From positions 64,001 to 128,000 of the forward strand of contig CAWJTV010000036.1 in assembly GCA_963845755.1 (NCBI GenBank): a stretch of 64,000 nucleotides of DNA, in the 5' to 3' direction. This DNA comes from an uncultured Planctomycetota bacterium. Lineage in GTDB: Bacteria; Planctomycetota; Planctomycetia; Isosphaerales; Isosphaeraceae. Made by a program: the position numbers and the translations under genes. Shown piece by piece: positions 727 through 64,000 of the stretch (positions are counted from its first letter, which is position 1; the number at the start of each line of letters is the position of its first letter). The notes below the pieces were generated by a model, which was not told the origin of the DNA, did no database searches, and saw only the letters and a list, made by a program, of their open reading frames with translations.

Positions 727-1229
727 CTATTCATGCTCCTCGCCCCTCTCGCGTCGTCCCAGGCTGTTGACCGTGCTGGTGGCGGCGTAGATGAGATCGG
801 GGACCACCGGCCCATCGGTGCGATAAGCGCCCGTGCCGCCCTGGTACCGGCGTCCGTGCGACCAGCCCAGGATCACGCGGCGTCGGAAATGCGCGGCACC
901 GGTTTCGTCCCAGCCCCAGGTCCCCTCGTCGCGCCGGCGGGCTTCACCCTGGCGATGGCCATGGCCGATCGGGACGCCACCGCCGACATAGTAACCGATT
1001 CCGCCGGGCGTCGCGCTCGGCTCCAGGTGACCGGCCGGCGTTCGCGGGTAGCCCCGCGGTCGTCGGTGTGCGGGATGAACCGCGGCTCGCCCGGCGGCGG
1101 CGTCCCCTCTTTCTTCTGGTGATGACGGGCGAAGAGGTGGAATCGCCGGGACGGGTCCTCGGCGTACGCCGCGACGCCGGCAGCCAGGATCTGGCCCGCC
1201 AGGATGGCTCGCAACACGGATGCTCGCAT
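727..1229 (-). CDS. Small secreted hypothetical protein (one indel near 1052; not given whole in ORF track)
   Basis: GGAGGGAG RBS, ATG 1229, signal peptide MRASVLRAILAGQILAAGVAAYA-E. After one frameshift it reads GYPRTPAGHLEPSATPGGIGYYVGGGVPIGH...EGTWGWDETG...WSHGRRYQGGTGAYRTDGP to TAG 727-729. Confidence 0.75.
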
Positions 1230-1245
1230 CAGCTCCCTCCGAGGA

Positions 1246-3352
1246 TCACGCCTTCTTCCTCCGCGGCGCCGGCAAGGGCAAGGGCAAGGCCGACCCTTCC
1301 GCATATTTGGGACCGCCGATCGGCACGTGCGGGTTTCGGTTGAACTTGAAGAACGGCAGTCGGACGCCCCGGACCTTCACCATGTCGGCACGCTTCCGAC
1401 TGGGCGGGGCATAGGCCAGCGCCGCCTCCGCGGTCACGTCGTCGTCCTGGAACACACCGTCACCGCTGACCCCCAGGCCGCCGACGAGCGGCTTGGTCGC
1501 TCCGGTGCCGGTGAGGTCCTTGTACAACGGCGCACTGCCGGGGAAGAACACCACGCCGTTCTGGTTCGCCGGGTTGGACGGGTCGTGGAAGTTCGCGTTG
1601 GGGTTGAAGTCGGCGTAGCCCTGGAGGCTCTGATAGTCCTTGGCCGGCAGTGGAGCGCCCTGATTCGTGCCGTACGGGGTCACGCCACCGTCGGTCAAGA
1701 TCGAGCCCGGACCGGCCGGGTCGATATCGATCCCCTCGGGGAAATGCGGCAACGAGAGGTAGCGGAAGGTCCGGGCGGTGAGCGCCGTGCCGGCGGGAAT
1801 CCCCTTGATCTTGTCGGCCGGCTGGAGCTGGCTGGCGTTGTCGTAGTAGGCGACGTTGCGGGCCTTGGCGACCGCCACGCCGATCGAGAAATACGTGGCG
1901 TCCGGCATGCGGTACAGGCCCAGGATGTCGCCGTTCTCGTCGCTGACGGCGAAGACCATCCGGGTGGTACTGTTCAAGGGCAGTCGGATCTGGGCACGGA
2001 CCTGGCCGGCCTCGGCGATCCCGCGGGCCACGATCGCCTCGACGTCGGCTGCGGTCAGGTCGCCGCCGGCGTGGGGCGTCACCAGCCAGCCATAGGGCAC
2101 ACCCTGGCCGGGCAGGTAGATGTCCCCCTGCGCGTCAACCGGCTGGTCCGTGCCGTCATCGGGACTCCCCGCCCCGAATTTCGCGCCGTAGCTCAACACG
2201 TTCTTGACGCCTTCCAGCCCGCCGTGACCGAAGAGGTTGAGCGTGATGCCGACCAGGTCGATCCGGCCGAAGGGCTCGGTGAAATTGGGCAGCGCCGGCG
2301 CGCCGTTGACCGGGCCGTTGATCGGCACCCCGGCCTGCGAGCTCCCTCCGGCCGCCACGAACGCCATGTACTCGGCGACGTCCGAGTAATCCGGCTCCTT
2401 CTTGTTCCGCAGGAGCGGCGTGTTCAGAGTCGAGTTCTCTTCGGTAGCGTAGCCCGTGGTACCGGGGAAGAAGACGCCGATGCCGCCGACCTCGGCGAAG
2501 GTCCCGTCCGGCTGCTTCTTGTACAGGGGCAAGCCGCCGGGCAGGGTCGCAATCCCCCGCGACTGCGCCGTGGGCAGGATGCCCGTGACCTGCCCGTACG
2601 ACTCGGGCGCGACAAGGTTGCCGCCGGCCGGAATGTCCTGTGAGGGGACGTTGAACCGCGTCCCTGTGGCATTGCTGATGCTGTCCCGGTTCGTGCCCTC
2701 GATGTCGAAGAGATCGACCTGCGGCGTGAACTGGATGCCCGGGGGGAAGTGTCCCTTGATCGCCACCGGCGCGACGTAGCCCGGGCCGTAGATCGTCGAG
2801 TTGCCGCCCGGATCGGGGACGTCGGGGTTGGAGTTCGACCTCGCGCTGGGAGACCGTGGTCTGGCTGATGTCCTGGACGGTTCGGGAGGTCAAGGGCGCC
2901 GTGTCGTTGGCGAAATAGGCGCCCGTGCGAGCCAGCGAGACGGCGCCATCGATGGCGAAGACCTTGTTCGTCACATCGTCCGTGATCTGCGTCGAGACCC
3001 CGCTCTCGATCCGGACGCCCAGGATCGTCCCGTTGCGGTTGACCACGGCGATGATGGCATCATTCAGGTCGGTGGCCGCCGCCGCGCGCTCCAGGAGCGT
3101 CTTCACGTCGCCGGGCGTGAGCACCTGGTCGGGCAAGGGCGGCGCGGAGGGATCGTCGGGATTGGTCGGGTCGTAGCCATGCACGCCAGGAGCGATGTCG
3201 GTGCCGCTGGTGACGGCCGAGGAGACATGCGCGGCGGAGTGCCGGGCCGACGCGCTGAGCAGCATACGCGGCTCGAGCCGGTCACACGACAGGCCGACAA
3301 CTCCGTCCCACCTGCGGCGCGGACGGGAATCGCGCAAGCTCCACCATCGCAT
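1246..3352 (-). CDS. Secreted heme-binding protein with tandem GlcG/HbpS (DUF336-like) domains (indel near 2833)
   Basis: Planctomycete export motif DRLEPRMLLS. Two GlcG-like units (AIIAVVNRNGTILG...LPGGLPLYK...VGGIGV; MVFAVSDENGDILG...AVAKARNVAYY...FPGSAPLYK...VGGLGVSGDGVFQDD). Joins ORFs 2156..3487 and 1246..2766. Confidence 0.8.
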
Positions 3353-3789: not shown

Positions 3790-5786
3790 ATGGGGCTGAG
3801 CCGCCGAGCCTGGGTCCTGGCTACGACACTCGCGCGATCGGCGCGTGGTGCGGGCCGGTCGGCGCCCAGGAGCGAACGACGCCTTCGGTCCCGCCGCCGG
3901 CGGCGTCCGGCTCGCCCTCGGATCCGAGTCCGACGAACCTGCCTCCGGTCTTCCCCACTCCGGACTCGCCGAGCGAACGAATGACGCGGGACTCGGGGGC
4001 TACGAATCGCCCGCTCACCGGCCCTTGGCCCGGCGTGCTAAGGCGGCCGATCGACGTCCCGTCCTCGCCGGCCCTGGTCGGGCCGCTCTTCGACACCGGC
4101 CCGTTCCTCCAGGTACCGATGGATCCCCCGACCGGCTATACCGGACCGTCCGGAGTGCTCCCCACCGAGCCGCAGCAGTCGAGCCATTTCGTCCCGGTCG
4201 AGGATCGCTGGCGGATCGGATCTCCCACCTGGGACCGCTACGACAAAGGCCATCCGATCACCGACGAGTACCCCTACATGCCCGGCCGATTGCTCGACCC
4301 GTACAACCTCAACGTCTTCAAGGGGGATTACCCGATCCTCGGCCAGCATACGTTCCTCGACATCAGCGCGACGGCCAACCTCGACTTCGAAGGCCGTGAG
4401 ATCCCGACCCAGACCTCGGGGTTCGAGAGCACGGAGCGCCCGTTCTCCGGAAACTCGTTCGGCCGGCCCAACAGCTTCTTCACGCTCAACTTCTTCTCGT
4501 TCTCGTTCGACCTGTTCCACGGCGATGGGGCGTTCAAGCCGGTCGATTGGCGCATCAAGCTGGTCCCGACCCTGGGCGTCAGCAACTTCTCGTTCAGCGA
4601 GCAGGCGCAGACCAGCCCCAACGTGGCCCAGGGGACCATTCGCACCCGAGAAGTCTGGGCGCTCCAGGAGGCGTTCGCGGAGTACAAGCTGGCCGACCTC
4701 GGCCCCGATTACGATTTCGTCTCGGTCCGCGCCGGCAACCAGCCGTTCAACGCCGATTTCCGCGGATTCCTCTTCTCCGACATCAACCGGGGAGTCCGGC
4801 TCTTCGGCACCCAGCACTCGAATCGCGACCAGTTCAACCTGGTGTACTTCCGCCAGTGGGAAAAGGACACCAACACCGGCCTGAACACGTTCAACGACCG
4901 CGGACAGAACCTGATCTTCGCCAATTACTACCGCCAGGACTTCATCTTCCCCGGCTACACGGCGCAGGTGAGCCTGAACTACGACAACGACCCGGCGTCG
5001 ATCAAGTTCGACAAGAACCGGTTCCTGGTGCGCCCGGACCCCGTGGGCAACTTCCAGCCGCACGAGGTGGACGTGGCCTATCTGGGCATCGCGGGCGACG
5101 GACACTGGGGCCGGTTCAACCTGACGAACCAGTTCTACTGGGCGTTCGGCCGCGACAGCATGAACCCGCTGGCCAACCGCCCGCAGACGATCAATGCGCA
5201 GATGGCGGCGATCGAAGGCTCGTACGACCGCGACTGGGTGCGGTACCGGCTGTCATTCTTCTTCGCATCGGGGGACGGCAACGTCAACGACACGCACGCC
5301 ACCGGGTTCGACACGATCCTCGACGCGCCCAATTTCGCCGGCGGCCAGTTCAGCTTCTGGAACCGGCAGCAGATCGGCCTGCAAGGAGTGAACCTGGTAC
5401 AGCGGCTCAGCCTGGTGCCCGACCTGCGCTCGAGCAAGATCCAGGGCCAGGCGAACTTCGTCAACCCCGGGCTGATCCTGCCCACCTTCGGCATGGACTT
5501 CGAGCTGACGCCCACGCTCAAGCTGATCACCAACTACAACCTGGTCTGGTTCGACAAGACGGCCCCGTTACAGCAGTTCTTGTACCAGGGGAACATCGAC
5601 CGTTTCGTCGGGTTCGACATCGGCTATGGCTTCGAGTATCGACCGCTGTTGAGCGAGAACGTCGCGATCATCGGCGGCGTGCAGATGTTGATCCCCGGTC
5701 AGGGTTTCCGTGACATCTACAACAATTTCGACAATCGGGTCGGCGGCCTGGTCGCGGGGTTCCTCAATTCGGTGTTCACGTTCTAG
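3790..5786 (+). CDS. Putative outer-membrane beta-barrel protein (indel near 3835 in the signal peptide)
   Basis: ATG 3790 MGLSRRAWVLATTLA joins AIGAWCGPVGAQE. Pro-rich linker, then aromatic-rich alternating beta-strands, ending FLNSVFTF (terminal Phe, beta-signal-like). Confidence 0.7.
5712..5786 (+). repeat. 75-bp direct repeat, copy 1 (3' end of barrel gene; attL-like)
   Basis: 69/75 identical to 14729-14803. Confidence 0.95.
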
Positions 5787-6353: not shown

Positions 6354-6358
6354 CAGCC

Positions 6359-21836: not shown

Positions 21837-24800
21837 ATGACCCGGTCCCGCTGCGCAACCTCGCCGCGCCTGCGAGCGAGCCAGGCCCTCGCCCTGGCGG
21901 TCCTCATCATGGCAGCCGTCCTGTTCGGGACACCCGGCCGTCGCGATGGGCATGAGGCGATGGCCCAGGCACCACCAATGTCCCCACCCTCGACACGGCC
22001 CGCCACACCCAGATCGACCGTGCCTTTCCCCGTTCCGCCCGAGCTCCAGGGCATCGATCTGTCCCGGCAGACGGCCGAGGAGGCAGCCGCCAGGAGCGCC
22101 GGCTGCGTGACGTGCCATCGGGGACAACACGAGCCCCACGGCAAGCCGGAGACGGTCCGGCTCGGCTGCGTGGACTGTCATGGCGGCGACCCGCGGGCGA
22201 CCGACCTGCAACACGCCCATGTCTGGCCGCGATTCCCCGACGCCTGGGGCGGTTCCGGCAACCCGGTCCGGTCGTACACGCTCCTGAATCACGAGTCGCC
22301 CGAGTTCATCCGGTTCGTCAATCCCGGCGACTTGCGAGTCGCCCACCTGGGTTGCGGCACGACCAACTGCCACGCCGACCAGGTGCTCCAGGTGCGCAAG
22401 AGCATGATGACCCACGGCGCGATGCTCTGGGGCTCGGCCCTGTACAATAACGGCTCGGTCCCGTTCAAGCCGGCGCGATTCGGCGAAAGCTACAGCATGC
22501 ACGGGGCCCCGCAACGGCTCCAGACGGTCCCACCGCCGACCCCGTTCGAGATGGAATGGAAGGCCGTGGTGCCGTTCCTCGACCCGCTGCCGCGGTTCGA
22601 GATGTCGCAGCCGGGGAACATCCTGCGGATCTTCGAGCGTGGCCGGCGCGACCCGCAGGAGGTCGGCATTCCGAACCCGTTTGAAGACCCCGGCAAGCCC
22701 CGCGCCGGGCTGAGCGCCCGCGGACTGGGGACCCGCAACCGCACCGACCCGGTCCTCGTCAGCTTGCAGAAGACCCGCCTGTTCGACCCGACGCTCAACT
22801 TCCTCGGGACCAACGACCATCCCGGCGACTATCGATCCAGCGGCTGCACCGCCTGCCACGTGATCTACGCCAACGACCGATCGCCGGTCAACTCCGGCCC
22901 GTACGCCGCCTTCGGCCACCAGGGACTGAGCGCTCAGGCTGACCCCATGATCCCGCGCGATGAGCCGGGCCACCCGATCCGGCACCGGTTCACTGTGGGA
23001 ATCCCGACCAGTCAATGTATCGTCTGCCACGTCCACCCGGGTACCAATGTCCTCAACTCATACACCGGCTACATGTGGTGGGACGAGGAGACCGACGGCG
23101 AGCTGATGTACCCGCCGCGACAGAAAGACCCCACCGCCGAGGAATTCACCCGCTCGATGATGTCGAATCCGGACGAGACGGCGGCGCGGGGGAACTGGTC
23201 CGACCCGGCGTTTCTGGAACGGGTCGCCGAGCTGAACCCGCAGGCGCGGCACACGCAGTTCGCCGACTTCCACGGCCACGGCTGGGTCTTCCGCGCCGTG
23301 TTCAAGAAGGATCGGCACGGGCAGTTGCTCGACCACCGCGGCGAGACCGTGACCGACCAATCGACCGCGGCGCTGATGGCGGCCGTGCGGCTGCCCGCCG
23401 AGCTGAAGGAGCGCTATCGCACCCGCAATGCCGCCGCGACCCAGCAGGCCGCGTTCGATCGCGCCGAGGCGCGGCGCGATGGGGTCCCTGTCCACCAGCT
23501 CGACATCCACCTGGAGAAGGGGATGCACTGCGTCGATTGCCACTTCATCCAGGACGTGCACGGCAACACCAAGCTCTACGGCGAGGTCCGCGCGGCCATC
23601 GAGATCCAGTGCAGCGACTGCCACGGCACGCCCGCTCGACGGGCCGGCCTGATCACCTCCGGGCCGGCCTCGGACACCTCCGCGGTCGAGTCGGGCAAGG
23701 ACGGTCGCGACCTCTCGGCCTTGCGGACACCCTTCCGACAGCGACGTTTCGAACGACGTGGCGGCGCGATCATCCAGCGCTCGATGGTCGAGCGCGACCT
23801 GGAATGGGAGATCACTCAGGTCGCCGACACGATCGATCCCAAATCCAGGCACTACAACGAGCGCGCCCACCTGGCCAAGACCGTGCGGTTCCAGGGCGAT
23901 CAGATGGTCTGGGGCGACATCCCCGGCGGCAAGGAGCAGGTTTGCGCCCACGCGAGCGAGAAGATGAGCTGCATCGCCTGCCACTCGGCCTGGAACCCGA
24001 GCTGCTTCGGCTGCCACCTGCCCCAGCGCGCAACAAGAAGATGCCCCAGCTCCACAACGAGGGCGACGTCACGCGCAACTACGTCTCCTACAATTTCCAG
24101 ACGCTGCGCGATGATGTGTTCATGCTGGCCAAGGACGGCAATGCGACCGGCAACCGGATCGGCCCGGTCCGGTCGTCGTGCGCGATCCACGTCGGGTCGT
24201 ACAACGCCAACCGCGAGTCGATCTATGTCCAGCAGCAGACGATCTCGGGCGAGGGGATGTCGGGGGTCGCCTTCAGCACGAACGTGCCGCATACCGTGCG
24301 GGGCGGGCCGCCGGTCCGGCACGATCCGCGCCGTCCGGATAACGGCCGCCCGGCCAATGCGGGTGCCTATCAAGCCGGCCACTCCGACACCAAGACCTGC
24401 ACCGACTGCCACCTCGCGAAGGGCGATGACAACAATGCGATCCTGGCGCAGCTCCTGATGCAGGGGACGAATTATGTCAACTTCATCGGGCGATACTGCT
24501 GGGTCGCGGCGGGGGACCACGGCCTGGCGGCGGTGGTGGTCACCGAGCGCGACGAGCCCCAGGCCGTCATCGGCAGCTCGCTCCACCGACTCGCCTATCC
24601 CGAATACTACCGCGAGCACGTCGAGCGCGGCGGCAGACTGGTCCACTCGCACGAGCATTCCGGCAGGGACGTCGGCGAACGCCTCCGCCGGCCGGAGGTC
24701 CTCTCGATCCAGGCGCGCGGCGAGTACCTCTATGCCGCCTGCGGCGAAGCGGGGCTCCGGGTCTTCGACATCGCGTTCATCGATCACAAGGGCTTCTCGG

Positions 24801-25852
24801 AACGGATCGTCACCGCGCCGGTGTCTCCGATGGGTCAGCGCTTCTTCGTCCGGACCTCGTATTCCACGGCGGTCGCCGCGCCCACCACGACCGCGCCCGA
24901 CCCGACCCGCAGCCATCGCCCGGAAAACTCCGAAAAGCCCGTCCACGCGCTCTATGGCTACATCTACGTCACGGACCGCGACGAGGGCCTGATCCTCGTC
25001 CCCGCCGCGACCCTACTCGACGGCAACCCCCTGAACAACTTCCTCGGCCGCGAGCTGACCTTCAATCCCGACGGCGTCCTCAAGGGGGCACGTGGGATCA
25101 CGATCGTGGGGACGTATGCGTACATCTCGTGCGACGCCGGGCTCGTCGTGATCGCGCTCGACGACCCGAAGCACCCGCGCGTGACGGCCGTGGTGGGCGA
25201 GCCGTTCGTGAAGCATCCGCGGGCGGTCCAGGCCCAGTTTCGCTACGCTTATGCCTGCGACACGGAAGGCATCAAGGTCCTGGATATCACCGACCTGGCC
25301 CACCCCCGGCCGATCGCGATGCTCCCGATGCAGGATGCCCGGAGCATCTACCTGGCGCGGACCTACGCCTACGTGGCGGCCGGGAAGGAAGGGCTGGTGA
25401 TCCTCGACATCGAGCGGCCGGCGCAGCCGCGGGTCGATCAGGTGTTCAATCCCGGTGGCTGCATCAACGAGCTGAACGACGTGAAACTGGGGATCACGTA
25501 TGTCAGCGAGTTCGCCTACCTGGCCGACGGGCGCAACGGGCTGCGCGTGGTGCAGCTCACTTCGCCCGAGACGCCGGGTAACGCTGGGTTCAGTCCGCGG
25601 CCTACCCCCCAGCTCATCGCGAATTTCAAGCTACCGGTCGGCGCCCGCGCGCTGGCGATCTCGAAGGGGCTCGACCGCGACCGCGCCGTGGACGAGTCGG
25701 GCAACCAGATCGGAGTCTTCGGGCGCATCGGCGCCCGGCCCCTCAATGCCGAGGAGCAGCGCAGGCTGTACATTCACAACAATCAGATCTGGAAAGTCAG
25801 CGACGATCCGCAGGATTCAATCTACCGGCGCATTCCGGAACGCGCGCCGTAA
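21837..25852 (+). CDS. Large multiheme cytochrome c with C-terminal LVIVD repeats (indel near 24030)
   Basis: Signal/anchor helix; 9 CxxCH (CVTCH, CVDCH, CTACH, CIVCH, CVDCH, CSDCH, CIACH, CFGCH, CTDCH) plus CGTTNCH; repeats such as [16 protein letters not shown] and [16 protein letters not shown]. Confidence 0.88.
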
Positions 25853-37917: not shown

Positions 37918-37972
37918 GCCTGAGCCCGACCTACGGTACCGGGAGCGACTGATTCGAGGTGGTAGAGGCGGC

Positions 37973-38949: not shown

Positions 38950-40527
38950 AACGAGCAAGCAGCGACAGTCGCGGATCGACCTGGGCTATTATCGGCTCCC
39001 CGACGCCCAGTCGCGCCGGCGGCGCTGGCTGATCCTGTCGGCCCTGCTGATCGCGGTGGCCTGGGTCGCGGCCGCACCGATCTGGAGCCAGGGGCGGGAC
39101 GGCGCGCGTGCGGTTCTTCCAGCAGGCCGGGCTGGCCTCGAAAGGGCCGCTGGCCCGGCCGCACGCGATGTGGGAGTCCAACTGCGAGGCGTGCCACGTC
39201 CCGTTCACGCCGGTCAACGGCTCGCGGTGGTCGCCGTCCTTGCGGAGCGGGTCGCATGCCGGCGAGGATTCCTGCCGGGCCTGCCACGCCGGGCCGAGCC
39301 ACCACGCGAGCCAGCTCGCGCGGGACGTCCCCTCGTGCGCCGAGTGCCATCGCGATCATCGCGGTCGGGACGCCTCGCTCCTGGTCATGGACGACTCGGC
39401 CTGCACTTCCTGTCACCGGGACCTGTCCCAGCACCGCGACCCGGCCGCCGGCCGGATGCTGACGGCGGCCTCGGTGACCCGGTTCGGCGCCGACCCGGCC
39501 CAGCACCCCGGCTTCACACCGCCGCTTGGCGTGCCGGGGCCCGACTCGGGGCGGATCAAGTTCAGCCACGCCCGGCACCTGGCCAATGGCCTGACGATGG
39601 CGAAAGACGGCGTCCCGTTCACGTTCGCCAGCCTGGACGAGCCGGACCGCGCCCGATACGGCTGGACCACCGGCCGGGACAGCGAGTCCATCCAGCTCCG
39701 GTGCGACTCATGCCATCGACTCGATGGCGGGGACAAGGAAAGCCCGGCCCTCCCGCGTTCGCCGGGTGCGTCGATGCGGCCGGTCACGTATGAGACGGAC
39801 TGTCGCGCCTGCCATCCGCTCCCTTTCGACGCGAAGGATCCTCAGCGGAAGATCCGTCATGGCCTCCGGCCGCGAGAGGTCGTCGAGGAGCTGAATCAGC
39901 TCTACACCGCACAGGCGGTCAAGTCCGATCCCGCCCTGCTCCGCCGGTTCGTGCCTCCGCGGCCGATCCCCGGCCGGCCCGTGGCCGAGGAGCAGGCGCG
40001 AGCCGAGAAGGCCGCGGCGGACAGGACGCTGTCGGCCCTCAAGCGGCTCTTCGGCTCGGCCGTCGACGAGGGGGTGAGGAGCAGCCAGGGGCTCCCGATG
40101 GGGCGAGGGGGCTGCGTCGAGTGCCACGAGCTGACACCTTCGTCCCGGCCGCTGGTGGACCTGGACGCGGTATCGAGCCTGGAACTCAAGCCGGTCGTCG
40201 TGCGGTCGCTGTGGTACGAGAGCGCCGCCTTTAACCACGCGGCCCACCGGGCGCTGGAGTGCGCGGGCTGCCACGCGGGAGCCTCGGAGTTCGACCGACC
40301 CGGCCCGCCTGCTGCTGCCGGATGTCGGGCAATGCACGAGTTGCCATGCCCCTGCGACAACCCAGGGGAGTCGTCCGCAAGGCGGGGCCGGTGTATCGTG
40401 CGTCGAGTGCCACCGCTATCATGACGGCGATCATCCTACCCGGGGGGTCGGGTCCACCGCGCGCCGGGGCTCGGTGGAAATGAGCCTGGAGCAGTTCCTG
40501 AGCGGTGGACCGCCGCGCGGGCGGTGA
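38942..40527 (+). CDS. Membrane-anchored decaheme cytochrome c (c3-like); indels near 39105 and 40290
   Basis: N-terminal TM; 10 CxxCH (CEACH, CRACH, CAECH, CTSCH, CDSCH, CRACH, CVECH, CAGCH, CTSCH, CVECH); FSHARH and FNHAAH distal ligands; overlaps the upstream stop. Confidence 0.88.
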
Positions 40528-45714: not shown

Positions 45715-50057
<4,343 letters not shown>

Positions 50058-50180
50058 CTCGATCCATATCAATAGTCTACACTCAGTCAACGATGGACGT
50101 GTGAAGGTGATCAGTCGATGACAAGCCCTCTGAAGGAATCCTCGCAGCAGGAAAAGCGGAGGCGCGCTGAGCGGCCTGAC

Positions 50181-50350
50181 GGGCCGCGGGAGCCCAGCCC
50201 GGGGTGAAACCCCGGGAGTAGAGCGGCCACCTCCAGCCTCTGGCGGCCTGAAGGGCCGCAGGAAGCGTCTCCCGCACCCTTGCAGGGTGCACCGCAAGGG
50301 TCCTAACCGAGGTTCCCGGGGTTTCACCCCGGGCTGGGCTCCCGCGGCCC
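50181..50350. repeat. Intergenic REP-like inverted repeat
   Basis: Perfect 37-bp IR GGGCCGCGGGAGCCCAGCCCGGGGTGAAACCCCGGGA (50181-50217 / 50314-50350). Confidence 0.9.
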
Positions 50351-50486
50351 TTTGGGCCGCATGTCACCGCGATCCCGATCCAGGAGCCCCGGCCTGAGGG
50401 AAAGTGTCGTTCGAGAGACGAAAACTCCTTCGGTTGTCGAGTTCGCGACGATCGTGACGTCCGTCAGAGGTTCGGGAGCCGTACGC

Positions 50487-54901
<4,415 letters not shown>

Positions 54902-55011: not shown

Positions 55012-57144
55012 CTATGAAACGCCGCCGAACCTCACGAAGATCTCCTCAATCTCCTCAGCCGTGAGTAGCGTCCCCGATTGGGGCGAATCGACGATGGTGA
55101 ACCCGTGGGCGCGGCCGTCGTACCAGGGGTCGGCGTTGTCGTAGCCGGCGCGGAGGGGTTTGGGCACGCCGGTGGCCGGGTCGGTGACGCGGTCGTCGTC
55201 ACCGTAGACCTGCCGGCGACGGTCCGATTCGGCCCGGTCGAGGAGGGCCGCCAGGCCGCGGAGCGAGGCTCCGCTGTCGGGCGATACCGAGAGGATGCAA
55301 CGACGGGGGTCGCGCGGCGACTCGGAGATGAACACCGAGAGGCCCAGGAATCCCTCGCCGCCCGGCGATCGCTCCCGATCGCTCCGGGCCCAGTCCTTGA
55401 AGAACATGCAGCGCTCGGGATCATCCAGGTTCTGGACGTCGCGGACCAGGAGTGCGTCCAACTCCACGCGTCCGCCAAATTGCCCCGGGAAGCTCAGCCG
55501 CGCTTGATGCGCGTGGGACGACGGGTCGGCCAGCTTGCGGCGATAGCGGTTGACGTCGGCCAGGACGTCTTGCCGGTCCTGTTCGTCGAACAGGCCGGGG
55601 CAGGCGAAGGCGTCGATCGACGGCAAGGCCCGCCCATCGTGCCGACTCCGTTCCAGGATGAACGCGACCAGATCCAGCCCTTGCTGGACACACTCTCTCC
55701 AGTACGCGTGATCGGCCGGCCGGCCCAGGCGTCCGTGGCGATTGAGCAACTGCATGTAAGCCGCGTAAGGCGCGAACGGGTTGCTCAAGGAGTGGCCGAT
55801 CGAGCCCTCGTCGATCTTGTCGGCATAACGGGCCAGGGCCTCGGTGCCCAGGGGGAATTCGCCGGTCGTGAGGACGGTGACCGCCAGATAGGCCGAGGCG
55901 ACCGAATCGAAGTCGGGCGACTCGTGAAGCACGATGGTGAACGGTGCGGTCGGGTCGAGCTGGGGTTGCACCGCGCCCAGTACAAGCTCGGGGTTCGAGC
56001 TGACGAGCTGGGTCGTCGAGCCTTCGTAGGCTTCCAGGTGATGGTGGTCGAGCACGCCGGGCCGGAGGTCGTTGCCGACGTCCAGGAACAACCGGCCCGG
56101 GGCCGGCCCCCCCTTCGGCGCCGAGGAGCCGGGGCCGACAAAAACGAAGCGGATCGCATCGCGGCGGACGAGCGGCAAGGTCGTGGGCATGGTGGTGACC
56201 TTTCTCCGGCGCGGCGGACCGGACGGCGCGGCTCCCGGCCGACCCTCCAGGTAGGCATCGAGGTCCGCGGCGAATTCGGCCATGCCCGCGTACCGGTCTT
56301 CGGGCTCGCGGGCGCACGCCCTGAGAGTGATGGCTCGCAGGGCCGGGTCGACCTCGAGCGGAGCGGGCGAGGACGAATCGAGAATGGGGGTGTCTTCGTC
56401 GGGATCGGCCGGGGCGGTTGGACCGGGGGTCGCCGTCGGTGTCCCGCGTTTGAGCAGGTTGACGAGCACACAACCGAGAGCGTAGATGTCGCACTTCGGA
56501 CCGATCTTTTCCGGGTCGCCGAAGAGCTGTTCGGGCGCCATGTAACGAACGGTGCCGGGCCGGACGTTGGTCGAGCTCAGTCGCGTCGCCTCATCGTCCA
56601 GCCGGAGCGCCAGTCCGAAGTCGATGACGACCGGGGTACCGTCGGGCGTGATGACGATGTTCGAGGGCTTCAGGTCGCGATGCACCACGTTCTCGCCGTG
56701 GGCCGCCGCCATGGCGATGGCCACGTCCCGGACGATGGCCGCGCTCTGCCAGGCATTGAGGTTCGTGACTTCCGACAGCGGCGTCCCCGGGACATACCGC
56801 ATCACCAGGTAGTGTGTGCTGGCGACCTGGCCGAGATCGATCACCCAGGCCAGCCCGGGGTGAACCAGCCGCGCGGCATAGCGGGCCTCGCGGCGGAATC
56901 GCTCCATGAGCCGAGGCTTGGCGAGGAAGTCTCGGCGGGGGATCTTCACAGCGACGTGGATCTCCAGCTTGAGGTCTCGGGCGAGAAAGACCATTCCCAT
57001 GCCGCCCCCGCCCAGATACTCCAGAAGCCGATACCGGCCGAACTCCTGAGGAAAAGGGCCCTTCGGATTCGGCATGAGGTCGGACCCGCTGGAGGATCCC
57101 GGATCGCCGATATCCCGCTCAGGGTCGGTGGTCGGGTCCGACAT
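55012..57144 (-). CDS. Ser/Thr kinase fused to a DHH-like phosphoesterase domain (start uncertain; ORF open to 57267)
   Basis: LGGGGMG, HRDLKPSN, DFG, YMAPEQ; then FLDVG, VLDHHH, HESPDFD, DKIDEG, PWYDGR. Confidence 0.8.
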   Translation of the reverse strand: MSDPTTDPERDIGDPGSSSGSDLMPNPKGPFPQEFGRYRLLEYLGGGGMGMVFLARDLKLEIHVAVKIPRRDFLAKPRLMERFRREARYAARLVHPGLAWVIDLGQVASTHYLVMRYVPGTPLSEVTNLNAWQSAAIVRDVAIAMAAAHGENVVHRDLKPSNIVITPDGTPVVIDFGLALRLDDEATRLSSTNVRPGTVRYMAPEQLFGDPEKIGPKCDIYALGCVLVNLLKRGTPTATPGPTAPADPDEDTPILDSSSPAPLEVDPALRAITLRACAREPEDRYAGMAEFAADLDAYLEGRPGAAPSGPPRRRKVTTMPTTLPLVRRDAIRFVFVGPGSSAPKGGPAPGRLFLDVGNDLRPGVLDHHHLEAYEGSTTQLVSSNPELVLGAVQPQLDPTAPFTIVLHESPDFDSVASAYLAVTVLTTGEFPLGTEALARYADKIDEGSIGHSLSNPFAPYAAYMQLLNRHGRLGRPADHAYWRECVQQGLDLVAFILERSRHDGRALPSIDAFACPGLFDEQDRQDVLADVNRYRRKLADPSSHAHQARLSFPGQFGGRVELDALLVRDVQNLDDPERCMFFKDWARSDRERSPGGEGFLGLSVFISESPRDPRRCILSVSPDSGASLRGLAALLDRAESDRRRQVYGDDDRVTDPATGVPKPLRAGYDNADPWYDGRAHGFTIVDSPQSGTLLTAEEIEEIFVRFGGVS

Positions 57145-57309
57145 CACTGGCGAGGAAACCGAGGTCGGTTCATCCGGATTGGCCGACGGGCCGATAGGGC
57201 TCGATGATGGAGGTTCCGGCGTTGGCAAGGTGGGCTCGAGACCGTCCACGGAAGGCCCTCCAAACAAGCCGATGAAGTCCTCAGGAGACGCGTGCCGGAC
57301 GAAGATCGC

Positions 57310-57395
57310 AATAATCTATGAAAAATTGTTAGATTCGCTCAATAATTGATATTGTTTATATATAATTATAATAATATATTTGCATTTTATTGACG
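57310..57395. promoter_or_regulatory. Very AT-rich tract upstream of the kinase-DHH gene
   Basis: AATAATTGATATTGTTTATATATAATTATAATAATATATTTGCATTTTATTG in otherwise high-GC DNA. Confidence 0.4.
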
Positions 57396-57627
57396 CCAAT
57401 GCAACTAGTGTACGATTGCTCCACCTGTTATTCCACCTGTTATCAGGAGCACGGCTCTCGATCGATTCACGCCCGGATCGTGCCCGCGCCACACGAGCAA
57501 AGTGGTGTGCGCCACTCATTCGTGAAGCGATCTGGCCCGACAGACATTTTATGAGGAATCCCTCCCGGTCTCAACCGTCAGGGAACGCGGGTCGCTCCAG
57601 ACCACAGGCCGAGCACGGCCGTCGGTG

Positions 57628-59515
57628 TCAGGAGGTCTCGCCCACCACGTCCCAGACCGGTTGTTCGCCGAGTTCTTCCAGGCCCTTGGGCAAGATGGTG
57701 CGAGGCGAGTCGTCGCGGTATCGGAACCGGCCTCGCACTTCGTCGTGCGTCCGCCGGCTGATGCAGGGGATACCCGGCTGGGCCTCGCTCTCCAGGCGAG
57801 CTCCCAGATTGACGGTCGTCCCGATCGCGGTGTAATCCATCAGATCGTAGGTGCCGACGTTCCCCAGCACGGCGTCGCCCGTGCTGATGCCGATCCGGAT
57901 GGCGAAGGGACGCAGGCCGAGGATCGTGCGCGGCTCGTTGAAGTCCGCCATCTCCCGGCAGAGATCCAGGCCGGCCGAGACGGCGCACGCGCTGCGTGAT
58001 GATGTCCGCGGAACATCGCCATGAAGCCGTCGCCGCGGAAGACGCTCACCAGGGCGTCGTGCCGGCGGAGCGTGGCGACCATGTCGGACATCATTTGATT
58101 GAGGGTCATCATGACCACCTCGGGCGGATTGTCGAGGGCATAGGACGTCGAGCCCTTGAGGTCGAGGAACAGCACCGTGAGCGGCTCGGTCGTCCCGGCG
58201 ATGAGCGAGTCGGTCTCCTCCGGCATGCCGCGGCCCCGGACACGGCGGAAGATCCGGGCGGAATACGCGTCGCCATTGACGACCTTCAGCTCCTCGCCGA
58301 TCTGCCGGACCAGATGGGCGCGGCGGCAGGATTCGGCCAGGTCCAGGGCCGAGAGGTACTCACGCGTGGTCAGCGGCCGTGGCTCGCCGGAGGCACGGGA
58401 CAGCCGCGCGATCTCCCACTGCGTCAGGGCCTGCTCGGCCTGTTCTCGCGTCCGGGTGAAATGGTCGAGTGCGGCACGGAGCTTCTGCTTGGCCTCGTCG
58501 TACCGGCCCTGCTGACGGCGGATCATCCCCCAGGATCGGTTGACGTGGGCCAGCCCTTCCGCGAACTCGACCCGACGAAAGAGGTCCTCGGCCTGCTGGG
58601 CCACGGCCTCGGCGGCCTCGACTTGATCGGTCGCCAGGTGGAGCAGGGCGCGATCCTTGCGGGCATAGCCTTCGCTGACGGCCCAACGCCCGGTCGAGGC
58701 GCGAATGCTCGCGTCGAGCCAGCCGGTCGCATCCTCCCAATGCCCGCGCGCTTCGCTCGCTCGGGCGGCCGCGGCGGCGCGGTTGCCACGCTCCAGCGCG
58801 ATCCGCCCGAGACTGTTCTGCATCAGCGCCTCGCCCCATCCGTCGCGCGTGTTCTGCGCGATGGCCAGGTCTTCCAGGAAGCACTTCTCGGCTTGATCCA
58901 GATATCCCCAGTCGAGATGAAGCCGGCCGAGGTTGCCGTAGCTGACCGCCAGGCCGGCCTGATCATCCCATGCCTTCTTGCGCCGATCGCTTGCCGGAAG
59001 AACTCCTCGGCGGCGTGAAAGTTGTCCCGGGCGGCGTAGACCATGCCGAACGTGTCGAGGATCCGCCCGGTGCCGTAATGGTCCCCGCCCAGCAGCCGGA
59101 GCGACTCGCGCAATTCGCGCAGGGCGCCGTCCAGGTCGCTCTTGTGGAACGCGTTGGCCCCGCGAATGTGGGCCACGGCGGCCCGAAGCAGGGTGCTCTC
59201 CGGCTCCGGATCGACCGAATCGAGCAACCGCTCGGCCTCTTCGAACTGCCGCTGACGCATCGCGAGGAACGCCTGGATAAATCGTCTCCATCTCTGGGCC
59301 GCGGGACTCTCGTCGGCATCTTGCAGCAGCGTCTGCGCCGCGTCGTACGCGCCGCGTTCGGCGGCCATCCAGCCGGCGAAGAACGCCAGATCATTCCTGC
59401 GCCCGGCGTCGGACGTCGCGGCGATTTCTTCCCTCAGCTTCTGCAAGCCCATCTCCCAGCCGTACTGGCGGAGCAGGGACAGGACTTTGTCGCCGGTCTC
59501 CGGTTGATTGATCAT
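57628..59515 (-). CDS. TPR-repeat class III nucleotide cyclase (indels near 58985 and 57985)
   Basis: ATG 8 bp after the upstream stop; TPR helices (GLAVSYGNLGRL); VLFLDLKGST, FRGDG, RIGISTG, YTAIGTTVNLGARLES. Confidence 0.88.
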
Positions 59516-59523
59516 GAGTGCTT

Positions 59524-62070
59524 CTACCCTCGTGCGTCCTGTCGACGCACCAGATCCAGCAGCTCCGTGCCTTTCATACGATGGGCGGCGTCGTGGGGGC
59601 AGGCGTAGACGCAGCTCGGCTCCGCGTTCGGGCCGAGGCTGGTACACAGGTCGCAGGTCGTGGCCTTGCGCACGTCGGCCTTCCTCGACTTGTCGTACTG
59701 CTCGACCATGTTGATGTTGCCATAAGGGCAATTCTCGGCACAGAGCCCGCAGCCGATACACCAATCCTCGATGACGATCTCACCTCCCGATCCGGGCGAC
59801 GATCGTCGCCGGATCGATCCTACCGGACAGCCGACCATGCAATACGGATCGAGGCACGAGCGGCACGAGCTGGCCACGAGGAACTGGTCGAACCGCAGTC
59901 CTTCGCGGATCAGGCGGGTCACGCCCTGGTGCGTGTCGGCGCAGGCCTTGGTGCATTCGTCGCAGCGGGTGCATTTCACCAGGTCGAGGACCAGCAGGCT
60001 CTGGGCCTCCATCAATCCCTGGTCCAGGAACGACGCGAGCGGCGTCTCGCGAACTTGTTGCAGGTCGCGCAGGTTGGCCTCGATGCGCTGGCGGGCCTCG
60101 GCGATCACCGCGTCGCGGACGGCGGGCGCCTGGTCGAGGATGGCGCGGAAGTCCGCCGGGCTGATTCGCACCAGGTCCACGTGATCGAGCGCCGTGCAGG
60201 TCGCAACCCGGACGCCGGCCGGGTTCAGCTCGCGCAGCTCGGGCAGGTCGGAGACCACGCCGATCTCGCCGATGTAGCCGCCCGGCCCCACGTAGTTCAG
60301 GACGCGCTCGCCACCGGTCCGTGCCTGCGAGACCTTGACGAACCCGGTCCGCACCAGGTAGAGCCCGTCGGCCGCGGGCGCCCCCTGGCGGAAGATCACC
60401 TGGCCCGGCTCGCAGCGTTGTAGCGAGATTCGCGGCCGCAGATCGTCGACGATCCGTTGAAACCGGGGCTCGTCGTCGCGCAACGGCGCGAACAAGGGGA
60501 TGCTTCGCAGGTGGTTGTCGATGGCGCGCGCCCGGTACTTCGCCTCGAGATCGCGGCGAAACGACGGGCTGCGCTGCATGATGTAGAGCACGTTGCGGAG
60601 CATCTCCAGCACCGTGCAATCCTCCGCCGCGCGGACGGTCGCCGAGTGGGGGTAATGACTCATGCAGGTCATCTCGCCGAAGATGTCGCCTTCGCGCAGC
60701 GTCGCCTGGGGCCGTGCGTAGGGCAAGGCAACCGGGGCGTTGACCGGGATGAACTCGCGCCGCCGATCGTCGGGGCGCGTGGTCATCCGGGTGGTGAATC
60801 GGCCCAGGACGCCCCAGAGGCCGCGCTGGGGCTGATTCTCGACGTGATCGGTCGGGGTGCGGATGTAGATCTCGACCGAGCCCTTCTCGACGAAGAAGGC
60901 CGTCGAGCCATACTCGCCCTCCCGGCAGATGATCTCGCCCTTTCGGAACTCGCGCCGTTTGATCGCCCGGATGTTCCACTGCAGGAACGGGCGCGACACT
61001 CCGCGGAACGCCTCGCGGATCTCCGGGTTCTCGTGCTGGATCAAGCGGTCGACATCGACCGCCCCGCCGCCGGGGAGCTGGGTCTCGACGACTCCGCGGT
61101 GCATCAAGGCGCCGGTGGGGCAGTCGTCGGAGCACTCGCCGCACGCCACGCAGGACGATCCGCCCATCGGGGAGTCGAGGTCGAAGGCGATCCGCGCCTG
61201 ATAGCCTTTGCCCATCCGGCCGATGACGTGGTTCTCCTTGATCACGTCGCAGCCCCGCACGCAGCGGTCGCAGAGGATGCAGGCGTTGTGATCGACGGCG
61301 ATGACCAGGGATGAGTCGTCGCGACGGAGGTCGGCCGCCCGCCCCTCGAACCGGTCCCCGGCCACCCCGAACCGCCGGGCCAGGGCCTCCAGCTCGCAGT
61401 CGCCGGCGCGCTGACGTTCCTTGACGCACGGGGTCGGATGATCGGACATCAGCAGCGACAGCAACGTCGTCACGGCGGACTCGACCCGATGCCGGGCGCC
61501 CGCGTCGGGCGACGCGATGGTGTCGACGATCATCCCGTCCTCGACGCGATGCTGGCACGCGGGGAGGAGCTTGTCGTCGACCTCGACCTTCCCCGTCCGC
61601 CGTCGGAACCGGGCCAGTTGGACGACGCAAACCCGACACACCGCCACCGGGTCCATGTAAGCCGTGTGGCAGAGTATCGGGATCGGGTTATTCGCCTCGC
61701 CGGCCATCCGCTTGAGCGGGCCCACGGAGGGCGAACGGCCGCCCGCTCGCGGGCCGAGATCGGTCCCGTTGCCCTCGACTTTCTCGTAGCGGCGGCCGAC
61801 GGCGTCGTAGATCGTGGTCGGTCGGGGGATGATCTGACCGTCCCCATCATACCTGGGGTCGCCTTGCTCGTCCGTGGCCACCACGGCCTTCTTGACCACG
61901 ACCTCCTCGCCGTCGATTGTGAGCGTGACCTCCTTATCGAGTTCCTCGCGCGTGGCGGCGTCATAGCGGATCAACCGCCCATCGAGATCGCGAACGAATA
62001 GTCCTTCATCCGACCATTCCCATTCGTCGCGATCCTCATTCGGAAGTTCGGCCCGCGGTTCTATGCTCAT
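59524..62070 (-). CDS. Fe-S protein: NuoG/FdsA/HoxU-like N-terminal module + two cNMP-binding domains + 4x[4Fe-4S] ferredoxin
   Basis: LCH...CRVC...PAC; CILCDRCVRGC; CVACGECSDDCP; GEIICREG...FGEM...SATVRA; GQVIFRQG...IGEI...RVATCTA; CTRCDECTKAC, CRSCLDPYCMVGCP, CIGCGLCAENCP, CDLC...CVYACP. Confidence 0.9.
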   Translation of the reverse strand: MSIEPRAELPNEDRDEWEWSDEGLFVRDLDGRLIRYDAATREELDKEVTLTIDGEEVVVKKAVVATDEQGDPRYDGDGQIIPRPTTIYDAVGRRYEKVEGNGTDLGPRAGGRSPSVGPLKRMAGEANNPIPILCHTAYMDPVAVCRVCVVQLARFRRRTGKVEVDDKLLPACQHRVEDGMIVDTIASPDAGARHRVESAVTTLLSLLMSDHPTPCVKERQRAGDCELEALARRFGVAGDRFEGRAADLRRDDSSLVIAVDHNACILCDRCVRGCDVIKENHVIGRMGKGYQARIAFDLDSPMGGSSCVACGECSDDCPTGALMHRGVVETQLPGGGAVDVDRLIQHENPEIREAFRGVSRPFLQWNIRAIKRREFRKGEIICREGEYGSTAFFVEKGSVEIYIRTPTDHVENQPQRGLWGVLGRFTTRMTTRPDDRRREFIPVNAPVALPYARPQATLREGDIFGEMTCMSHYPHSATVRAAEDCTVLEMLRNVLYIMQRSPSFRRDLEAKYRARAIDNHLRSIPLFAPLRDDEPRFQRIVDDLRPRISLQRCEPGQVIFRQGAPAADGLYLVRTGFVKVSQARTGGERVLNYVGPGGYIGEIGVVSDLPELRELNPAGVRVATCTALDHVDLVRISPADFRAILDQAPAVRDAVIAEARQRIEANLRDLQQVRETPLASFLDQGLMEAQSLLVLDLVKCTRCDECTKACADTHQGVTRLIREGLRFDQFLVASSCRSCLDPYCMVGCPVGSIRRRSSPGSGGEIVIEDWCIGCGLCAENCPYGNINMVEQYDKSRKADVRKATTCDLCTSLGPNAEPSCVYACPHDAAHRMKGTELLDLVRRQDARG

Positions 62071-62111
62071 GGATCGGGTCCTGATCGGCCGGGCTTCTGC
62101 GTACCAACTGG

Positions 62112-64000
62112 TCAGGCTTTCCAGCCTGAAGCGTGCGGGGAGTCGGGCTGGAAAGCTTGACCTACGTGAGATTCGTGCTGGTTCCAGTCATGCTCGAACA
62201 GTGAGGCCATGGGCTTGGATGCGGAGGTGCCCAGGCCGCAGATCGAGGTTTGCTCCAGGGTCTCCTGGAGGATGCGCACCAGATCGAACAGCGCAGCACG
62301 CTCCGAGGGGTCGGACGGTCCCTGCGCGAGCCGCTCCCCGATGCGGACGAGCTTCTGGGTGCCGATCCGGCAGGGGACGCACTTGCCGCACGATTCGTTG
62401 CGGAAGAACGTCGTGGCATTGAGCGCAAGGCCGAGCATCTGGACGGCCGGATCGAGCCCCGGGGACCTGGCGACGACCAAGAGCCCGGCCCCGAGCATCA
62501 GGCCCAGCTCATCGAACTCGGCCTTGTCCAGCGGCAGTTCCAGCAGGCTCAGCTCGTTGCGCCCGGCCGGGAAGCTCCTCCGCTGCTTCGCGGGCAGGTC
62601 CGCGGGAGTCAGATTCGCCGGCAGGAATCCGCCCGACGGACCCGAGGGTGCCAGTGCCAGCAGCGGTAGTCCCTTCCGCATGCCCCCGGCCATCGCGACC
62701 AGCTCGCCGACGGTCGTGCCGACGGGCACCTCGTAGACGCCGGGCCTCGCCACGTCGCCGCAGATCGAGAAGAACCGCAGGCCCTTGCCGCGTGGCCATC
62801 GTTCCGGTTTGTCATCGGGCCTTCGACGAGAGACGTACCAGGGGCTGTTCGCCATGCCACTGTCTCGATACCACGCCCCGCCCTTGAGCGCAATCGACGG
62901 GACCCAGGCGAAGGTCTCGACATTGTTCAGCAAGGTCGGCCGGTTGAACAGGCCGTTGGCCTCGATCACCGGCGGCCGGTTGCGCGGCTCGGCCCGATGC
63001 TCCTCGATCGCCTCGATCAGTGCCGACTGCTCGCCGCAGATGTACCCGCCAGGGCTCTCGAAGACCTCCAGCTCGAAGGGCTGGCCGGTCCCCAGCACGT
63101 CCGGCCCGACGACGTCCAGGGCCCGGGCTCGGCGGATCTCCGCCTCGACGGCGCGGATCTGCTCGAAATACTCGTGCCGGATGTAGACGTATCCCCGACG
63201 CGCCCCCACGACCAGCGCGCCCAGGACCATCCCCTCGACCACGAGATGAGGGGCCCGGAGCAGGATCTCGCGGTCCTTGAATGTGGACGGCTCGCTCTCG
63301 TCGCCGTTGCAGATGACGTAGGTCGCATCGGCGCGCTCGGACTCGTCACGGACCTCGCCCCACTTGCTGAATGCGGGGCGACCCGCGCCGCCCATACCGC
63401 GCAGGTCGGACGTCTTCAGGGCGTCGACGAGCGCCTGGCCGACCGCCTTTCGAGCCGCGGGATCCCCGGCCTGCTCGATCGCCGCGGCGAACGCGCGCGC
63501 CGCGGCGTACGGCTCCGGCGGCCGTGCGGCGGGCAGTTCCTCCGCTGGGGAGCCGGCCGGTTCGCCCGGCGTCTCGGCGTGATAGGGGTCGATGCGCCAG
63601 CCCCGCGGCGCGCGATCGACCGGGTCCGGCGGTACCTCGCGGCCGTCGAGGTGCGCCCGGATCAGCTCCCGCATGCGCGCGGTGCGGTCGTCGATCGCGG
63701 TGCGGTCGAGGAACCGCAACTGGTCATGTTGCCCTTTCCGATGCAGCTCGATCAAGACGGCCGGCGCCCCATCGCAGCGGCCCAGGCAGGAGACCCCCTC
63801 GACCTTCACCCGCGACTCGCCGCCGAACTCGCCTGCGACCACCTGGAGACCCAGCAGGCACTCGGCCGCGCCCCGCAGATGGCAGGCCTGGTCCCGGCAC
63901 ACGTGCACCTCGACATCCGGCGGCGGCTCCAGCCGAAAATGCGGGAAGAAGCTGATGACCTCGTGCAGTTGGTGTGGTGGCACGCCGAGACGGTCCGAGA
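62112..64000 (-). CDS. NuoE-NuoF-like fused NAD(P)H:FMN oxidoreductase (start beyond window)
   Basis: CRDQAC...CLGRC [2Fe-2S]; LRGMGGAG, CNGDESEP, YICGEQSAL, ESCGKCVPCRIG...ICGLG. Confidence 0.9.
   Translation of the reverse strand, partial: SDRLGVPPHQLHEVISFFPHFRLEPPPDVEVHVCRDQACHLRGAAECLLGLQVVAGEFGGESRVKVEGVSCLGRCDGAPAVLIELHRKGQHDQLRFLDRTAIDDRTARMRELIRAHLDGREVPPDPVDRAPRGWRIDPYHAETPGEPAGSPAEELPAARPPEPYAAARAFAAAIEQAGDPAARKAVGQALVDALKTSDLRGMGGAGRPAFSKWGEVRDESERADATYVICNGDESEPSTFKDREILLRAPHLVVEGMVLGALVVGARRGYVYIRHEYFEQIRAVEAEIRRARALDVVGPDVLGTGQPFELEVFESPGGYICGEQSALIEAIEEHRAEPRNRPPVIEANGLFNRPTLLNNVETFAWVPSIALKGGAWYRDSGMANSPWYVSRRRPDDKPERWPRGKGLRFFSICGDVARPGVYEVPVGTTVGELVAMAGGMRKGLPLLALAPSGPSGGFLPANLTPADLPAKQRRSFPAGRNELSLLELPLDKAEFDELGLMLGAGLLVVARSPGLDPAVQMLGLALNATTFFRNESCGKCVPCRIGTQKLVRIGERLAQGPSDPSERAALFDLVRILQETLEQTSICGLGTSASKPMASLFEHDWNQHESHVGQAFQPDSPHASGWKA

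Follow-up and report, generated by a model that had tools for sequence, protein, structure and literature searches.

Related clusters and the locus in the window

The closest described relatives of the locus studied here are two gene clusters, considered as they are presented in the accessible parts of the respective papers. PCC4 comprises a porin, cytochromes with 4, 5 and 10 haems, and a membrane protein with one SGXXG and two WX3HX13H motifs, and it also occurs in Planctomycetes (He et al. 2017, PMC5566968). The same text reports it from Fe(II) oxidisers and presents the doubled WX3HX13H motif as the ferric-reductase-domain pattern for two b haems (PMC5566968). The ptdABCDEFG cluster was named with its function stated as unknown (Elbon et al. 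2024, bioRxiv 10.1101/2023.11.21.568154). Judged by their described content, PCC4 and ptd appear to be one cluster. We analyzed a stretch of 64,000 nt, hereafter the window (G000:C36:64001-128000), from the 14.3-Mb, 88%-complete assembly of an uncultured planctomycete (G000), whose nearest named protein matches belong to Isosphaerales/Isosphaeraceae. It encodes a NuoE–NuoF flavoprotein (NuoEF), an iron–sulfur (Fe-S) protein with cyclic nucleotide monophosphate (cNMP) domains, a cytochrome b, three multiheme c-type cytochromes, a β-barrel and an HbpS/GlcG-like protein (GlcG) (Table 1). An earlier sequence-only reading had proposed a cyclic-nucleotide-gated conduit across the envelope with its own cyclases and kinases. 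We find that the named parts form one conserved system, and hold, with somewhat more confidence than doubt, that this envelope system passes electrons outward from NAD(P)H and is likely switched by a cyclic nucleotide.

Profile comparison indicates that the inner core of the window is homologous to published PCC4/ptd; the outer module differs, and the locus is not a full member. Shared are the cytochrome b with two WX3HX13H motifs and SGXXG, a cNMP/Fe-S protein (PtdE, pfam13247), a decaheme next to the membrane protein (PtdG), a c554-like small multiheme cytochrome, an NAD(P)H oxidoreductase gene, a porin, and the presence in Planctomycetes. On the other side, NuoEF with a HoxU-type domain stands as a functional analogue of the FNR-type PtdC, an LVIVD decaheme takes the place of PtdA (a pentaheme with a C-terminal β-sandwich), a pentaheme replaces the tetraheme, the barrel shows no profile similarity to PtdB-type porins, and an HbpS-like protein is added. 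The earlier statement that the parts match no known pathway holds to the extent that no characterised pathway was found, and has to be amended for the inner core.

The ptd-type loci used as stand-ins were selected by gene order and haem count, not by the papers' accessions; planctomycete loci L127, L128 and L130 have the ptd gene set and haem counts in ptd order, and L129 has them rearranged. Scored on the window-family profiles, ptd-type loci (5/4/10 haems) reached 183–191 bits for the Fe-S protein, 110–137 for the cytochrome b and, in 4/5, 66–110 for the decaheme. The pentaheme aligned with PtdD-type cytochromes (hhalign 99.8%, E 2e-27), with five motifs in the window protein and four in the PtdD type. 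The barrel gave 0.2% against the PtdB-type porin, from profiles of 49 and 4 rows, the smaller of which limits sensitivity. The LVIVD decaheme gave 30.6% over 27 columns against PtdA-type pentahemes, whose rows were picked by layout, and the c554-like protein gave 81.8% over 88 columns against the same type, in the haem region only.

Conservation of the gene set

A GTDB scan for the LVIVD decaheme returned at least 571 stretches, the best 80 of which come mostly from Planctomycetota and Acidobacteriota. Full flanks were available for 32 of these 80; near the LVIVD decaheme, 29 of them had the barrel, 23 GlcG, 20 cytochrome b, 17 the pentaheme, 17 the anchored decaheme, 16 the Fe-S/cNMP protein and 11 NuoEF. 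Where enough flank was available to judge position, the barrel lay directly upstream of the LVIVD decaheme in 53 of 67 loci. Compact clusters of the parts are present in five genomes (G002, G022, G023, G027, G008), with a partial one in G006, and Sphingobium herbicidovorans MH (NZ_CP020539, B6S01_RS18410-18455) carries all seven core parts inside 16 kb. The gene order of G330 is that of the window, with 110 bp between barrel and LVIVD decaheme, and the 16 kb separating these genes in the window are therefore an insertion.

Co-occurrence was assessed in 151 Planctomycetota genomes for the barrel and the LVIVD decaheme, and in 201 Planctomycetia genomes for the LVIVD decaheme, cytochrome b and cyclase. 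Barrel and decaheme were present in an identical set of 25/151 genomes. Carriers of the decaheme made up about a third of the second sample (66/201): 62 genomes had both decaheme and cytochrome b, 4 and 3 had only one of them, and 132 had neither; related genomes are not independent in these counts, and the P values for co-occurrence are therefore overstated, which tells against us. An apparent lack of cytochrome b in 13/25 carriers, based on full-length matches only, was rejected as mostly a threshold effect. All 13 were examined in part: divergent copies lay near the cluster or on the examined contig in nine (G079, G145, G149, G120, G136, G086, G093, G064, G114), the copy of G107 was on another contig, and none was found in the partial stretches examined of G046 and G130/G097.

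The scatter of the parts over 64 kb, with an insertion sequence (IS), glycosylation and kinase genes in between, would suit a chance neighbourhood of unrelated genes. The shared order in G330 with its 110-bp spacing, the compact arrangement in three phyla and the co-occurrence contradict such an origin, to which we give hardly any credence. The linkage that the sequence-only reading had drawn between several divergent units is borne out by synteny, co-occurrence and fusions across Planctomycetota, Acidobacteriota and Sphingobium, and the profile and neighbourhood searches it had called for, across Planctomycetota and other phyla, found both co-occurrence and synteny conserved.

Related gene sets with other haem counts were also seen. 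In further Planctomycetota lineages (L106-L116, L138, L140), a divergent cytochrome b is accompanied by 15- and 17/18-haem cytochromes in place of the decaheme and pentaheme. Locus L132 (G033:C81 114-127 kb) has an Fe-S/TrxB-like/ferric-reductase fusion, a barrel-like gene and cytochromes of 23, 11 and 7 haems, of which the one with 11 haems reaches 147 bits against the profile of the LVIVD decaheme. In the source assembly, a lone second c554-like cytochrome lies amid TPR genes at G000:C11 925295-926956.

The inner chain

The cytoplasmic side of the locus resembles the HoxEFU diaphorase and NuoEFG in its NuoE, NuoF and HoxU/NuoG-type Fe-S domains, and differs from them in having cNMP domains and a four-cluster ferredoxin in place of the catalytic partner. 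In the 848-aa protein, the HoxU/NuoG-type Fe-S motifs and the ferredoxin, which is C-terminal and has four Cys clusters, are joined by the two cNMP domains. The NuoEF gene adjoins the Fe-S/cNMP gene in relatives; in the window its start codon falls about 70 nt outside the stretch. Four forms of NAD(P)H flavoprotein occupy this input slot: NuoEF in the window, a TrxB-like protein in Sphingobium, an NDH-2-like protein in G023 that itself carries a cNMP domain, and FNR-2Fe-2S in the ptd-type loci. Because flavoprotein modules recur in the slot, which is our best evidence, NAD(P)H is the probable cytoplasmic partner, in agreement with the sequence-only reading.

In the cytochrome b family (27 rows), W82-H86-H100, S124-G125-G128 and W305-H309-H323 are nearly invariant and correspond to the two WX3HX13H motifs and SGXXG. 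The four conserved His form two HX13H pairs, and the G023 orthologue matches PF01794 below the cut-off (E 2.5e-5); the protein is predicted to bind two b haems. A simple hydropathy scan of two orthologues gave four peaks per protein, differing between the two, and the alignment would fit five helices, the number that defines the PCC4 protein. A PDB sequence search with the cytochrome b profile gave no meaningful match. The gene overlaps that of the anchored decaheme by 8 nt, and the decaheme has a single N-terminal hydrophobic helix in relatives. The anchored decaheme and the LVIVD protein have 10 CX2-4CH motifs each, and the c554-like protein has 5; the sequence-only reading had named the last of these correctly as c554-like, and we specify it as a pentaheme. 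Its PDB search returned only a weak match to Nitrosomonas c554.

Several fusions join neighbouring parts. The cNMP-cNMP-FeS protein is fused to cytochrome b in L079, L097 and L100; in L097 and L100 a single chain holds FHA, a multiheme region between two hydrophobic helices, the Fe-S pair and a TrxB-like domain. A tetraheme is fused to the barrel in L079, L090, L097 and L100, and the Sphingobium decaheme carries an FHA domain. At L089:4853-7384, one open reading frame spans five haem motifs with cNMP and four-cluster domains, which could be a genuine fusion or could result from misassembly.

With ferric-reductase-domain systems (NOX, FRE/STEAP, MsrQ and MsrQ-like proteins) the locus has in common the two HX13H pairs and the supply of a membrane di-haem protein by a cytosolic NAD(P)H module. 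The window adds a relay from flavin to haem made of Fe-S and cNMP domains, a multiheme c output and an outer-membrane module; in contrast to those systems, no flavinylation genes were found among the recurrent neighbours. Gene clusters pairing MsrQ-like and NuoF-like proteins, as described in the accessible text of PMC8238504, are a further analogue.

We favour an outward direction of electron flow because four NAD(P)H modules fill the input slot and fusions join neighbouring parts. He et al. proposed for PCC4 an inward or quinone-linked route, in which an outside donor would feed the envelope cytochromes, cytochrome b and the quinone pool, leaving the flavoprotein as a side branch. The window membrane protein has every PCC4 motif, PCC4 is known from Fe(II) oxidisers (PMC5566968), MsrQ, a relative, is reported to bind quinone (PMC8238504), and some loci have no flavoprotein nearby. 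What speaks against that route is the recurrence of the NAD(P)H flavoprotein in four forms, fused to multiheme or Fe-S chains, and a cytoplasmic Fe-S relay fused to cytochrome b that quinone reduction would presumably not need; we regard the route as unlikely, yet as one to be taken seriously.

The outer module

An AlphaFold2 model of the barrel (pLDDT 81.5) has 18 long strands, and its best fold matches are AlgE (Z 26.7, root-mean-square deviation 2.9, 366 aligned) and Occ porins. The LVIVD decaheme is 43-47% identical to its Sphingobium orthologue. The model of the G023 orthologue (1199 aa, pLDDT 80.2) has a C-terminal propeller, and fold searches with this model as a whole returned propellers only; the haem region was not searched alone, and no new fold is claimed. 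With about 130 residues per haem, haem density is low, and the non-haem loops are strongly conserved, which suggests that the protein serves as an enzyme or for docking more than as a simple wire. Neither the LVIVD decaheme profile nor that of the barrel had a meaningful sequence match in the PDB, and an ESM Atlas search returned only unnamed multiheme and HbpS-like clusters. The GlcG gene was recognised correctly in the sequence-only reading, which called its product a secreted heme protein; export and heme binding are plausible from the HbpS-like Pfam match and the weak LEPR-XLL motif. The outer proteins may contact one another, and conserved loops of low model confidence (residues 174-253 of the LVIVD decaheme model) are candidates for touching the barrel.

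The adjacency of barrel and decaheme genes in the 53 loci noted above recalls MtrCAB, MtoAB, PioAB and the Geobacter porin–cytochrome conduits, and an Mtr-like respiratory wire to extracellular minerals or humics would account for the porin and multiheme layout, the tetraheme–barrel fusions and the carriers in soil and peat lineages. The differences are considerable. The AlgE-like barrel has 18 predicted strands against 26 in MtrB (10.1101/2022.05.06.490989, accessible text), the LVIVD decaheme has 1330 aa and a propeller, and the input is NAD(P)H, not quinol, by a route that seems to lack an evident coupling site. The haem spacing of the LVIVD decaheme is far from the wire-like values near 33 residues per haem given in the accessible text of PMC5566968, and its profile and that of the barrel matched no PDB sequence. 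We hold such a wire to be very improbable. The strand count agrees with the earlier view that the parts are not Mtr subunits, and for the same reason the continuation of the chain to the cell exterior, proposed at the same time, is unproven.

No published description of a GlcG–barrel–LVIVD module was found in a literature search that had most subscription journals outside its reach. The peat EET1 'porin-scaffold-cytochrome' cluster of Terriglobales, compared by its description only, has acidobacterial hosts and porin and multiheme genes in common with the module and could overlap it (bioRxiv 10.64898/2026.05.27.727921, accessible text). The Uet cluster was set aside, as its accessible description has different parts and a separate LVIVD protein (10.1101/2022.05.06.490989). 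At G000:C25 47312-52077, a second, near-identical GlcG with a small gene and a second FHA-GAF cyclase run towards each other; the rest of the system is missing there.

Cyclic-nucleotide parts and kinases

In the cNMP pockets of the Fe-S protein family, Gly-Glu is kept in both domains and Arg in 50/51 and 51/51 sequences; domain B of the window protein keeps the cassette. Class III cyclases number six in G000, two of them in the window and one beside the second GlcG on C25, and system genes adjoin 3/6. The gaps of 8 bp and 21 bp between redox genes and the two window cyclases, given in the sequence-only reading, are exact, 21 bp belonging to the FHA-GAF cyclase and its pentaheme neighbour by the coordinates of Table 1. 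Of these two cyclases only the FHA-GAF enzyme belongs to the system. In the host's family, it occurs in 21/21 carriers of the LVIVD decaheme and 4/29 non-carriers; across the 201 genomes it is present in 39/66 carriers, and 21 of these 39 have it no more than 30 kb from either the LVIVD decaheme or the cytochrome b gene. It also adjoins the ptd-type core in G083.

The best PDB match of the FHA-GAF cyclase is the guanylyl cyclase Cya2. Its family has Asp (8/9) at one specificity site and Gly (9/9) at the second, whose role we presume, compared with Glu and Gly in Cya2. The E488K exchange in Cya2 is described as giving adenylyl cyclase activity (PMC5995499, accessible text). The cyclase is conserved with the cluster and, by these alignments, has guanylyl-like residues in its family; gating by a cyclic nucleotide, possibly cyclic GMP (cGMP), would fit. 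Class II phosphodiesterase-like genes are present in six related clusters (L016, L026, L028, L047, L079, L124).

The abundance of signalling domains (cNMP pairs, FHA on the Sphingobium decaheme, cyclases and phosphodiesterases) is what one would expect of a redox sensor, in which haems of the envelope would inform the cell of redox or haem conditions outside, and the modules for cNMP, FHA and cyclase would convert this to a signal. Streptomyces HbpS, moreover, is a redox-stress sensor. Against a sensor stand its cost, with 25 c-haem motifs and a flavoprotein, and the neighbourhood, where no DNA-binding or histidine-kinase output gene is recurrent; we think it improbable.

The TPR cyclase was rejected as a member, having a homologue in 1/200 other genomes, on a different contig from the cluster. 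Paired with its kinase, which has a C-terminal unannotated domain with an HHH motif, it also occurs at G330:C6 616-621 kb (L148), in reversed order and away from redox genes. The idea that the system has its own kinases is not supported: kinase motifs number 263 in G000, four of them in the window, and a few relatives (G310, G330, L070, L039) keep only the kinase-TPR gene (30663-33839) beside the cyclase or in its vicinity. That gene is found in 8/201 genomes at E<=1e-95 and is multi-copy in G330 and G316. The WD40 kinases were likewise rejected; three kinase-WD40 genes lie at 40867-54900, and two of them have an N-terminal domain without annotation that recurs in a paralogue on C22 (88% identity).

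Proposed electron path and its control

In the path we propose, NAD(P)H would reduce the flavin (FMN, flavin mononucleotide) of NuoEF, and the Fe-S/cNMP protein would relay the electrons to the predicted di-haem cytochrome b. From the b haems they would pass to the anchored decaheme and the pentaheme, which may feed the outer module of LVIVD decaheme, predicted 18-strand barrel and HbpS-like protein. Lying between two Fe-S arrays, the cNMP domains could control the contact of the arrays, and a cyclic nucleotide, possibly cGMP, would then be the likely switch of the relay. Outward transfer of this kind is downhill and spends membrane potential, as in NOX and ferric reductases. Because of this cost, tight control would make sense and respiration is less likely; the chain appears better explained as delivering reductant, under regulation, to an enzyme of the envelope. 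As the partner is HbpS-like, the acceptor at the outer membrane may be haem or iron, or else some other small redox-active molecule.

A more detailed version is offered only tentatively, as we doubt that all of it will hold. A dedicated guanylyl-type cyclase and a phosphodiesterase would set cGMP, and its binding between the Fe-S arrays would open the NAD(P)H-to-periplasm wire. A previously undescribed outer-membrane enzyme module (18-strand barrel, propeller decaheme and HbpS-like protein) would spend the electrons at the cell surface. In this widespread chain, as in PCC4/ptd, the inner core would act as a socket into which different input and output modules plug.

Several observations count against switched outward flow from NAD(P)H. 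No flavoprotein gene lies within 10 kb in some variants (e.g., L074 and L082), and a distance of 70 kb to 4.8 Mb separates the inner from the outer module in 12 of the 29 genomes where a single contig holds both. The FHA-GAF cyclase family is also present in 26/135 non-carriers, and was not found at threshold in 27/66 carriers, including 13/13 genomes of genus g22. Acidobacterial neighbour cyclases are of the CHASE2 type with adenylyl-type residues. In the window copies, cNMP domain A has His for Arg, alone among 51, and the cyclase has Thr for the family Asp (1/9), with Gly kept; either may be a true change or a sequencing error. A phosphodiesterase orthologue was not found in the 88%-complete G000 with the one query used, and the literature found held no experiments on the system.

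If our reading is correct, a cyclic nucleotide directly controls an electron-transport chain, for which we know of no precedent. A second outer module would also be connected with PCC4/ptd, so far an orphan cluster, whose cytochrome b would be NAD(P)H-fed and not only quinone-linked. Lineages of soil and fresh water commonly carry the system, given the 66 Planctomycetia carriers and the GTDB stretches counted above, and the full copy in the cultured S. herbicidovorans MH makes it directly testable.

Gene content and assembly of the window

A codon-model gene map with Pfam/NCBIfam scans of the window, together with motif counts, placed every part named in the sequence-only reading where it had been located (Table 1).

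Table 1. Features of the window, with positions counted from its first nucleotide
Feature	Position	Strand	Basis and remarks
Small conserved protein adjoining GlcG, frameshifted	727..1245	-	72-73% identical homologues adjoin GlcG in G008, G330, G310; no Pfam match
HbpS/GlcG-like protein, likely exported	1246..3352	-	PF03928 E 2e-13; frameshift near 2830; weak LEPR-XLL motif
Outer-membrane β-barrel, predicted 18 strands, AlgE/Occ-like	3790..5786	+	AlphaFold2 model, AlgE structural match
LVIVD decaheme, 10 c-haem motifs and C-terminal β-propeller	21837..25852	+	PF08309; frameshift near 24030
Ser/Thr kinase-TPR	30663..33839	-	Linked in some relatives only
FHA-like/GAF/class III nucleotide cyclase, conserved with cluster	34076..35833	-	PF00211, PF01590
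c554-like pentaheme cytochrome, homologue of PtdD-type tetraheme	35855..37316	-	PF13435; frameshift near 36785
Ferric-reductase-like di-haem cytochrome b (predicted; PtdF / PCC4 inner-membrane protein family)	37973..38949	+	Frameshift near 38705
Membrane-anchored decaheme cytochrome c, PtdG-like	38942..40527	+	10 motifs; two frameshifts
TPR cyclase paired with a kinase, outside the conserved system	55012..59515	-	Homologue in 1/200 other genomes
848-aa protein: HoxU/NuoG-type Fe-S domain, two cNMP domains, four-cluster ferredoxin (PtdE-like with N-terminal extension)	59524..62070	-	PF00027, PF13247; intact
NuoE-NuoF fusion, NAD(P)H/FMN input module	62112..64000	-	PF01512, PF10589, PF01257

Five redox genes of the window carry frameshifts: those of GlcG, the LVIVD decaheme, the c554-like protein, cytochrome b and the anchored decaheme. 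Because intact homologues in relatives align through every one of the five breaks, and abutting same-strand frame switches occur at 28 per 240 kb elsewhere in G000 (four other 60-kb stretches), assembly indels are the likely cause. A soil sequencing run (X1) gave thin coverage of the stretch and none over the five key breaks; its single low-depth contigs remove one base at 29576 and one at 37348. No RNA sequencing runs containing the stretch were listed.

Between the divergent pentaheme and cytochrome b genes, 37545-37920 holds about three head-to-tail copies of a palindrome-rich repeat of about 130 bp; one short-read contig skips 130 bases within it, and similar repeats lie near 300-560. The segment 6500-21000, between barrel and LVIVD decaheme, contains an IS (DDE transposase), glycosyltransferase, methyltransferase, toxin–antitoxin-like and small genes, and is absent in G330 and G310. 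At 26174-29800, a repeat-rich protein, which we take to be β-helix-like, and a small barrel-like protein have no strong Pfam match and are kept at the same position in G330 and G310 only. About 10 kb past the right end of the window lies a large nonribosomal peptide synthetase gene cluster (L001-L002, G000:C36 138-160 kb).

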